Virus record (IMG/VR): IMGVR_UViG_2877948078_000005
Span: 1 to 50,138 of that record
Strand: one strand, 5' to 3'
Source: a virus
Lineage: Duplodnaviria > Heunggongvirae > Uroviricota > Caudoviricetes
Length of the DNA stretch: 50,138 nucleotides
Of the stretch, positions 48,001 to 50,138 are shown in pieces (within the stretch, counting starts at the first letter, position 1; every line of letters starts with the position of its first letter). The position numbers were made by a program.

Positions 48001-50138
48001 GAATACATAGACAAAAGGCGAGAAGAAGGACGAGCTGAGTGGGAAAAGGTCAGAACGGATAAACAAAAATATAACTAAACTAAGACCATGAATAACCCGT
48101 GTATATACGGGTTATTTTTCTTTATCGCCATCTTTTCTAGATTTGAACAATCCACTAACAACGAAGCCAACCAAACCAACAATACTAATTGTACTTGTTC
48201 CCAGTAATGCAACGATTGCTTCAACTGGCGGCTTTCCTTCATGAGCAATAAGAAATGATACAAACATTCCGGCTACAAATAAGCACCAACACGACATAAA
48301 CCAAACCGTGAATGAGGCCATTTTTGTCCGAAGCTCATTGTCTATTTCTTTACCAGTTGCGTCAGCTATCTTATCCCGTACTTGTGACTTGAGCATATCA
48401 AGCTGAGCTTGAAGACTGTCCATTCTGTTCTGCTGCATAAACTCATGCAATGCACCAGTATTAGAACCAAACTCTTCTTCCTCCAGAATAGCCTTATTTT
48501 CTGAAGAAGAATCATCATCGCTCTCATGATTAGACGGCTCAAATGCGGATTCAAAAACCTGCTCTTGACTGTCAGTAGAGTTTAAGGATGCTTCAGAGCG
48601 ACCATTTTCAACACCTGCGGCCGCTCCGATCAGTTTATAGATATCTGAATTATGAGACATGTCATCCCTGAATATTACTTTTTCAGAGGCCCTGACATTG
48701 CTGTCGGTTATTCAATAAATCATGATAATAAGCCTTGATCGCATCATTTGAGATGATCGACGAGCCAATACCATTATAAGCTTGTGACCAAGGCGTACCT
48801 GGCATATGAGTTAGAGTTGATAACTCAATTCCATTTTTCGAGCCGTAAAACTTATAAACAGCCCCTATAATGCTCTCTGCTTGAGGATCCATAGTAACGA
48901 TGCCACCAAAAGGAGCTACTGCTACATTCGTAACAGGTTTATTCCCATAATCTTTGAAAGCATCGTACATTCCAGGAATAACTGGACCGTACTTCCACGC
49001 GGAGACACATTCATTGAGCAAAGGCTTACCTGTTAATGCTAAATAGTAACCATGGGCAATATAAGTAAGCTTCTGCAGTTGCATGTGGGTCAGAGGATTA
49101 TGATGTTGGTTTCCCAACGTTATGAATTTATTGGCTATTTGTACCGGACTGTACATAACCACCCTCCTCATTACACTGAATGTGCAAACAGTATCATCAC
49201 TGTTATCTCAACCTAACACGAACAAAAAAGTTTTGGAAGATTGCAAGAGCAAATCACTGTGTTTATAACCAGCAAATGACTGTACATATACACAGGTTAC
49301 AAATTGGTGGCGAATTATACCTGCAGAAGTTGCGATGTCAACAAAGCGACCATCACAGTGTTTTGCATCTCACACTGTTATGACAAAAAATCTTTTGATA
49401 GGTTCCCAATAGGCTCCCACAAAACACATAACCAATTGTTTTTCAAAAACGATACATCCTATCGAGCATTGGTGCAACGCTAAACCGACCACTCCAGTGA
49501 ACGTCAGTTTTTTCAGGCATTGCGCTGGTTTGGTTGATTTTTTGCATTTCAGAATTACCGTGCATTTTCAAATGTAGAGATTATTTTATCGATATATCAT
49601 TGGGTTATGTTATTCAGCATCACTGTTCAGGAGGCTCAATAGCGGGGTACTATACCATAACAACAGGAAGCGCCTGTCTCATTGCAAAAGAAAATTGAGA
49701 TCAAATCAAGGCATGAAGCTCTCACGAAGTGATGGAAATAATCTTATTAGCCGTTAGCCTTGTTAAGGACAATGATAAACAATCCAGGTTCGACGATAAA
49801 TAAAAAATCACACATTAAACTCCGGTGATATCTCTTCCTGCTAATGGCACTGATAGAAGAAAAAAGAACCCAATAAGTATTAGGTTCTTTTATGTAATGC
49901 CTTCCATACCATCGAAGAACTTCACATATTATTTCGCCGATTTAACCCCGAACAAATCATAAATTAAATTAGAAGTATCTGTAAGTATTTTAATCTTTTC
50001 CTTTGAGTTTGGGTCAAACGACTTAGCAAAGTCAATTAATTTCGGTGCAGCATCTCGCATTTTGCTTAAAATATCAGGTTCGAGCTTTCCTTCATTCACC
50101 AGAAGTGACATTTTATCCAGATAGTCATCAAATTTCAT

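Follow-up and report, generated by a model that had tools for sequence, protein, structure and literature searches.

In this study we analysed a 50,138-nt stretch of viral DNA (positions 1 to 50,138 of IMG/VR virus record IMGVR_UViG_2877948078_000005, hereafter the window), with a focus on the gene pair panA-panT (panAT) near its right end. panA (49156->48683, minus strand) encodes a 157-aa stand-alone Panacea (DUF4065) antitoxin without a helix-turn-helix (HTH) domain, and panT (48660->48112, minus strand) encodes a 182-aa membrane toxin. Judged from the sequence, panAT, which lies next to attR in an Stx2d prophage integrated at dusA, probably forms an SOS-induced operon in which a consensus promoter is held by LexA at three operators, and we put the probability of this reading at about 0.7. 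The proteins were already known. Sequence identity shows the pair to be PanA/PanT(Esc. col.), a type II toxin-antitoxin (TA) system of toxin cluster T3, and as a system it brings nothing new, being a textbook case of a published and validated PanAT module. The cluster of LexA boxes behind a perfect promoter is apparently unreported, a statement we make provisionally.

The DNA upstream of panA was examined for promoter and operator motifs. A predicted panAT promoter was found on the minus strand at 49314-49341, with TTGACA (49341-49336) and TATAAT (49319-49314) separated by a 16-nt spacer. It agrees with the sigma-70 consensus at 12/12 positions, was the sole 12/12 match in the scan of 47700-50138, and places the predicted transcription start near 49307. 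Three LexA boxes, to which no strand was assigned, lie between this start and panA. Box 1, GACTGTACATATACACAGGT (49278-49297, about +11 to +30), contains an exact CTGT-N8-ACAG, and scored 18.0 bits with a position weight matrix (PWM) and about 7.3 on an approximate heterology index (HI). Box 2, CACTGTGTTTATAACCAGCA (49255-49274, about +34 to +53), is of the CTGT-N8-CCAG form, which also occurs in the LexA boxes of uvrB and recN, and scored 19.6 bits with an approximate HI of 7.4. Box 3, CACTGAATGTGCAAACAGTA (49174-49193, about +115 to +134), scored 17.7 bits with an approximate HI of about 8.1, and ends 4 nt upstream of the panA Shine-Dalgarno (SD) sequence. The preliminary description of this DNA had placed one CTGT-N8-ACAG box about 125 bp upstream of panA. 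That strict match, CTGTACATATACACAG, is present at 49280-49295, 124 nt from the ATG, but there are three boxes, not one; the other two LexA-like boxes were overlooked, as were the 12/12 consensus promoter and the position of the cassette at attR.

The boxes were then compared with chance expectation. A search for the strict CTGT-N8-ACAG consensus, which is independent of the PWM, gave 6 matches in the window where 0.65 would be expected, and 0/100 shuffles reached 6. With the PWM, which was built from 26 hand-entered E. coli sites, seven sites of at least 17.7 bits were found in the 50-kb window, the next best scoring 10.7, and three of these seven fell within the 124 nt upstream of panA. The panA boxes (17.7-19.6 bits; approximate HI about 7.3-8.6) can be set beside the reference sites, which span 12.3-28.3 bits and 0.9-10.8, respectively. 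In a first-order Markov simulation of the 307-nt region, the probability of at least one site of at least 14 bits was 0.005, and that of at least two was below 2e-5.

Among 5426 complete E. coli genomes, 79 full-length copies of the locus were found, each of them at dusA. With 97-100% identity these copies were too alike to inform on conservation, and cross-genus loci were therefore used. The few substitutions spare boxes 1 and 2 and fall in the 2-4 nt that separate them; box 1 did not change across 6 E. coli and phage alleles. Further loci were drawn from species genomes, exact-protein look-ups and IMG/VR; INPHARED held merely three phages with the PanT toxin and so supplied no diversity. At E<=0.001, the source names of PanT homologues were solely Enterobacterales, and a Panacea (PF13274) gene stood directly upstream of the PanT homologue in 17/17 exact-protein look-up loci. 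A strong LexA box (>=14 bits) was present within 1 kb upstream of panA in 21 of the 24 dereplicated gammaproteobacterial (Enterobacterales) loci. The upstream regions held 26 boxes in 23.9 kb (1.09/kb), as against 1 in the other 111 kb of these loci (0.009/kb).

The PanA proteins of Enterobacter, Klebsiella and Salmonella are 72-76% identical to that of the window, and their upstream DNA barely aligns with it. In all four of these relatives, the -10 hexamer (TATAAT or TACAAT) is kept at the aligned position. The extended -10 motif TATAATTCG is present among the four in Enterobacter (L016) only, and was also found in the P2-like locus L022. The Enterobacter homologue carries a box of 22.4 bits at the box-1 position, and those of Klebsiella and Salmonella carry one of 17.5-22 bits at the box-3 position (-33 to -38 from the ATG), within otherwise unalignable surroundings. 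Two P2-like loci, L083 and L084, have a TTGCAA-16-TATACT promoter with a LexA box over the -10, which leads straight into panA with no open reading frame (ORF) between. With three operators, a consensus promoter and boxes recurring in diverged homologues, LexA control of panAT is well supported in silico. Neither 'LexA' nor 'SOS' appears in Kurata et al. 2022 or Ernits et al. 2023, and an incomplete literature search returned no paper joining Panacea/DUF4065 with LexA control of such a gene.

Next, the two proteins were compared with the published system. PanA is identical to WP_000287252.1 (157/157, 100%), and PanT is identical to WP_000019185.1 at 179/182 positions (98%), with V35, S47 and E61 replacing A, R and A as three N-terminal substitutions. 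Table 1 of Kurata et al. 2022 (PNAS 119:e2102212119; PMC8832971) lists these two accessions together as PanA and PanT of E. coli STEC O31, a Shiga-toxigenic E. coli (STEC), with the mode 'Membrane'. WP_000019185.1 was recovered from strain STEC1588, again at dusA, and this strain shares with the window the order of the two genes, their 22-nt spacing and their place in a dusA prophage. In the report of Kurata et al., PanT(Esc. col.) expressed alone arrested growth by depolarising and permeabilising the inner membrane, and co-expressed PanA neutralised it; the toxin halted transcription, translation and replication together, and it caused strong depolarisation and SYTOX Green uptake, read by the authors as large-pore formation. 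The published work used pBAD and Ptac constructs, the native promoter, LexA and SOS being outside its subject. The orthologues in GenBank PV340566.1 (phage PhiR47_1, ECOR13) are labelled 'PanT toxin' and 'PanA antitoxin'. In literature of incomplete coverage, no other paper was found to name WP_000287252.1 or WP_000019185.1. We assign the pair to the known system because PanA is identical, and PanT 98% identical, to experimentally characterised proteins. The preliminary description had not been able to match the pair to a described one and had named a match to a characterised system as what would overturn its proposal; both proteins have such a match, so that this part of it falls.

Its account of the genes themselves was borne out. 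The DUF4065/Panacea assignment of 48683-49156 was recovered with PF13274 (SocA_Panacea; E=6.2e-18, 66.2 bits against a gathering cut-off of 25.7), profile positions 1-112 of 113 aligning to residues 32-128 of the 162-aa ORF translation. The strong ribosome-binding site (RBS) was read directly as GAGGAGG at 49169-49163 (minus strand), 6 nt upstream of the ATG; a longer panA ORF from 49171 overlaps this SD, and 49171 is not the annotated start. The gap to panT is 22 nt, as it had said, and both genes lie on the minus strand. The partner had been described as acidic in its N-terminal part with two C-terminal helices, and PanT indeed has a net charge of -14 over residues 1-75 and hydrophobic segments at about 116-140 and 146-172 by hydropathy. 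Both genes are also more AT-rich than the backbone (GC 0.406 for panT and 0.411 for panA, with 0.378 for the region upstream, vs 0.522 for the remaining window). An order of Panacea antitoxin gene then membrane-toxin gene, with characterised homologues, agrees with the toxin-antitoxin type that had been proposed.

PanT is a full-length member of phrog_13343 (E=8e-113) and matched no Pfam family, and a search of PADLOC-DB 2.0 gave no PanT match and only a spurious one for PanA (E=0.017). The assignment of PanA as a SocA type VI antitoxin (NCBIfam NF047745 equivalog) was rejected, as it scored 96.8 bits, below the cut-off of 190. An AlphaFold model of PanT (21 homologues) contained helices at 53-139 and 146-178 forming a hairpin, and a disordered stretch at 17-54; because its mean predicted local distance difference test (pLDDT) value is only 61, with a predicted template modelling score (pTM) of 0.29, the model was used for secondary structure only. 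PanT is thus predicted to have a disordered, acidic N-terminal part followed by a long helix, with a membrane hairpin of two helices at its C-terminal end. Over 21 homologues its N-terminus varies freely and its last ~80 residues are nearly invariant, among them G-x-x-I-D-N-x-L-R just before the first hydrophobic helix. At the RNA level, Rfam at E<=1 over 47500-50138 gave a single sub-threshold chance match, and the predicted 169-nt leader folded no better than shuffles (z=-0.08), with no riboswitch or small-RNA signal.

From these data we propose the following model for panAT. In the resting lysogen, host LexA would keep the very strong panAT promoter low by occupying three operators within the first ~135 nt downstream of the predicted start, a tandem pair from +11 to +53 and one abutting the RBS. 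DNA damage would lead to RecA-stimulated LexA cleavage and, in parallel, to cleavage of the phage S24-type cI repressor, and panAT would be switched on at prophage induction, since the prophage responds to LexA cleavage as well. A single bicistronic panA-panT mRNA would then be made from the consensus sigma-70 promoter. The antitoxin, with its strong SD, would be translated before the toxin, whose SD is weaker, giving an antitoxin excess, so the system would be 'armed' and not immediately lethal, and PanT would act only once PanA is removed or overridden. Candidate roles of the armed system are defence or abortive infection, a contribution to membrane permeabilisation during induction, and a TisB-like SOS dormancy. 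Ernits et al. 2023 argued that Panacea is not an autoregulator and left the activating cue open. Since PanA is also without an HTH domain, an external repressor fits.

Several points weigh against this LexA-gated model. All three boxes lie downstream of the predicted, unmapped start, unlike the -35/-10 overlap of most SOS genes, and the efficiency of repression is uncertain for this reason. The PWM scores depend on a hand-entered set of 26 reference sites, although the strict consensus search does not. No terminator was found between the orphaned dusA fragment and panA, and read-through from the dusA promoter across attR into panAT, an SOS-independent expression, is therefore possible. In many P2-like loci the boxes are located 450-930 bp upstream, ahead of a small ORF and dinI, and the panAT promoter-like site itself is box-free, so the association of boxes with panAT in those loci may stem merely from an SOS operon next door. 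Two lineages are boxless, namely L032 and Providencia L020/21, the latter with the pair located after a Q-like antiterminator. On the protein side, a toxin-antitoxin complex was obtained by pull-down for five other pairs and not for the E. coli pair (Kurata et al. 2022), and because the complex evidence comes from those pairs, we infer direct binding of PanA to PanT(Esc. col.) by analogy. For the Bartonella PanT:PanA pair, a predicted interface between the Panacea core and the segment before the transmembrane (TM) region was confirmed by mutagenesis (Ernits et al. 2023). By this analogy, PanA would bind the conserved segment just ahead of the two TM helices of PanT.

The first rival explanation is that the operon is essentially constitutive, driven by the consensus promoter and dusA read-through as a standing anti-phage or addiction module, with boxes that are weak, decorative or slight modulators. 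The downstream position of the boxes, the interval between dusA' and panA without a detected terminator, and the P2-like relatives with a box-free proximal promoter-like site all agree with it, as do P2-like relatives that adjoin defence genes in a variable hotspot (retron I-C; weak PD-T7-4 and DitB matches). Defence cargo of P2 hotspots is usually expressed in the lysogen. Against this, three operator-range boxes in 124 nt far exceed chance, and the boxes shift position yet persist over genera. The box in L083/84 overlaps the -10 of the sole promoter ahead of panA. In the window, box 1 at +11 is still within the RNA polymerase footprint, which extends to about +20, and can block initiation or escape. 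We consider constitutive expression unlikely.

A second alternative is compatible with LexA control and concerns function. Here panAT would not be a classical addiction TA but an induction-phase accessory, with late PanT pores aiding the release of phage and Shiga toxin or killing cells in which induction is aborted. PanT pores are SYTOX-permeable and the predicted derepression coincides with prophage induction; in addition, a prophage gene for a LexA DNA-binding domain alone could re-close the operators later, and the antiterminated early-left operon converges on panT. However, the prophage already encodes a holin, a lysozyme and spanins of its own, and PanAT homologues are found in defence hotspots; we regard an accessory role as rather improbable. 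The least credible explanation, that the boxes work on the attP/int side (in rightward transcription or recombination) and not on panAT, draws on the circular phage, in which the upstream region of panA abuts attP with int (plus strand) just across, and on a plus-strand promoter-like ATTACA-16-TATCAT (49170-49197) that brackets box 3, but this element matches at only 9/12 positions, the chance level (7 found, 7.0 expected), and homologues without int nearby keep their boxes (P2-like after gpA; others after holin or porin genes).

If the LexA-gated model is true, LexA cleavage would supply the activating cue for stand-alone Panacea systems. The PanAT papers argued against autoregulation by Panacea and held that it need not be the part that neutralises the toxin, and they left the activation cue open. 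LexA gating would also mean that, in a Shiga-toxin phage, a membrane pore-former is expressed when the prophage is induced, and a LexA-gated promoter recurring over genera and phage types would put the PanT toxin family into the SOS response. With even odds, T3-type PanAT may be conserved SOS-regulon cargo of Enterobacterales temperate phages, with LexA cleavage as the switch for a pore-forming toxin and its Panacea antitoxin together. In the present Stx2d phage, a non-cleavable phage protein that comprises the LexA DNA-binding domain alone might later re-close the operators and produce a timed pulse.

Among related systems, the PanT(D11/T12):PanA pair of Bartonella choladocola (apis) (Kurata et al. 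2022; Ernits et al. 2023, PNAS 120:e2305393120) likewise has a stand-alone Panacea antitoxin. Its toxin resembles E. coli PanT in a charged N-terminal region, C-terminal TM helices and pores, but the two toxins are too diverged to cluster, and the host is an alphaproteobacterium with a different LexA motif. The type VI TA system SocAB of Caulobacter has an antitoxin, SocA, with the same PF13274 (DUF4065) domain as PanA; SocA serves ClpXP as an adaptor for the degradation of SocB, which inhibits the beta-clamp (PMC7556043). PanA lies below the SocA equivalog cut-off and PanT is an unrelated membrane protein.

LexA-regulated toxins are also known in E. coli itself. TisB/IstR-1, DinQ/AgrB and HokE are LexA-regulated type I TA systems with RNA antitoxins and toxins of 29-50 aa. 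Like PanT, these toxins depolarise the inner membrane and have an SOS box (predicted in the case of panAT), but the panAT antitoxin is a protein, PanT has 182 aa with a large cytoplasmic part, and there is no sequence relationship. The type II systems yafNO and dinJ-yafQ of E. coli are LexA-regulated as well. The higBA system of IncC plasmids is described as ciprofloxacin-inducible (PMC8265657). These three are, like panAT, protein-protein TA operons with an SOS box near the promoter, and because of them an SOS-controlled type II TA is a known kind of system. Their toxins are ribosome-dependent RNases and their antitoxins DNA-binding autoregulators, in contrast to PanA, which has no DNA-binding domain.

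The setting of panAT within the prophage was also determined. The window is identical to E. coli chromosomes at 100%, for example that of strain 2014C-4135 (NZ_CP027310.1; 1601 bp compared), in which the counterparts of the pair are WP_000287252.1 (panA) and WP_032209643.1 (panT). Nearly the entire window is a lambdoid Stx2d prophage with the gene order tail and head, lysis, stx2dAB, Q, nin region, cro/cI and early-left operon. It is integrated at the 5' end of dusA, and the left prophage end comprises intact dusA, int and a dinI-like gene. An orphaned 5' dusA fragment of the host, annotated as a partial tRNA-dihydrouridine synthase, lies at 49571->49443 (minus strand). The phage/host junction (attR) was placed at about 49463-49470 because three sequenced phages (1720a-02, phiSTEC1575-Stx2k and PhiR47_1) terminate at window positions 49462-49469. 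The panAT pair, on the minus strand, is the final cassette inside this junction and represents AT-rich accessory cargo of the prophage end. An initial reading of the window as a P2-like prophage with a hotspot of old/tin type was dropped, the window being a lambdoid Stx2d prophage in dusA.

A 12-pair hairpin (48090-48117, no strand assigned) forms a terminator-like site between panT and a convergent xis-like gene on the plus strand, and overlaps the panT stop codon. Since a T-run follows it on the plus strand, it probably terminates the early-left operon. This operon (plus strand), whose last gene is PrtN-family and xis-like (47806-48117), converges on panT; antitermination past the hairpin would give a transcript antisense to panT and panA (48112-49156), and in the circular phage such read-through would run across attP toward int. 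Beside attR, 63 nt of phage DNA (49400-49462) show 84-90% identity to stretches that about 660 further complete E. coli genomes carry under the annotation 'partial dusA', presumably other dusA-integrating prophages with a common att-proximal arm. An inverted repeat, ACAGTGT-N10-ACACTGT (49354-49377), just upstream of the panA promoter -35 and about 90-110 bp from the att junction, is imperfectly conserved between alleles and may represent an arm-type site for Int or a further operator.

In P2-like phages the pair occupies the variable stretch bounded by gpA and the portal gene, beside defence genes. The gene that follows panAT encodes a retron I-C reverse transcriptase-Toprim protein in L022 (3464-5224; E=1.7e-212), a KAP NTPase in L026 (3566-5567) and a DUF4145 protein with a weak PD-T7-4-like match in L028 (3353-4051), and neighbours also include a weak DitB match. 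Because differing defence-type genes follow it in these three loci, we place the panAT family in the P2 variable hotspot.

Other LexA-related features were observed elsewhere in the prophage. In the nin region, 36702-37028 (minus strand) encodes WP_000210155.1, a 108-aa protein that comprises the LexA DNA-binding domain alone (PF01726, 1-65/65, E=2.9e-19; aligned to E. coli LexA residues 2-70), without the S24 cleavage and dimerisation domain. Its recognition helix reads SVNAAVEHLRAL, compared with SPNAAEEHLKAL in E. coli LexA. From its domain content, it could be a non-cleavable LexA mimic that, once induction has occurred, re-occupies the seven boxes of the prophage as well as SOS boxes of the host. 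A phage-encoded LexA homologue has a precedent in GIL01 gp6 (PMC6182141). The best LexA box of the window, TACTGTATGTAAAAACAGTA (26.8 bits, 42495-42514), is intragenic, in the gene that encodes the cI-like repressor (HTH and peptidase S24; 42286-42978, plus strand). Another, AACTGGATATTTTTACAGTA (24.3 bits, 33513-33532), is at the 5' end of a phage DNA methyltransferase gene (minus strand) located between Q and the tRNA-stx2d cluster. At window positions 1-48, the interval that separates the int end from the dinI-like gene contains a pair of strong LexA boxes (22.8 and 23.6 bits), the arrangement expected of phage dinI. Finally, the same Stx2d prophage has a further membrane-toxin module besides panAT, an annotated Hok/Gef family toxin gene at about 3166-3306 (minus strand), which is flanked by the tail-fibre gene and gpJ.

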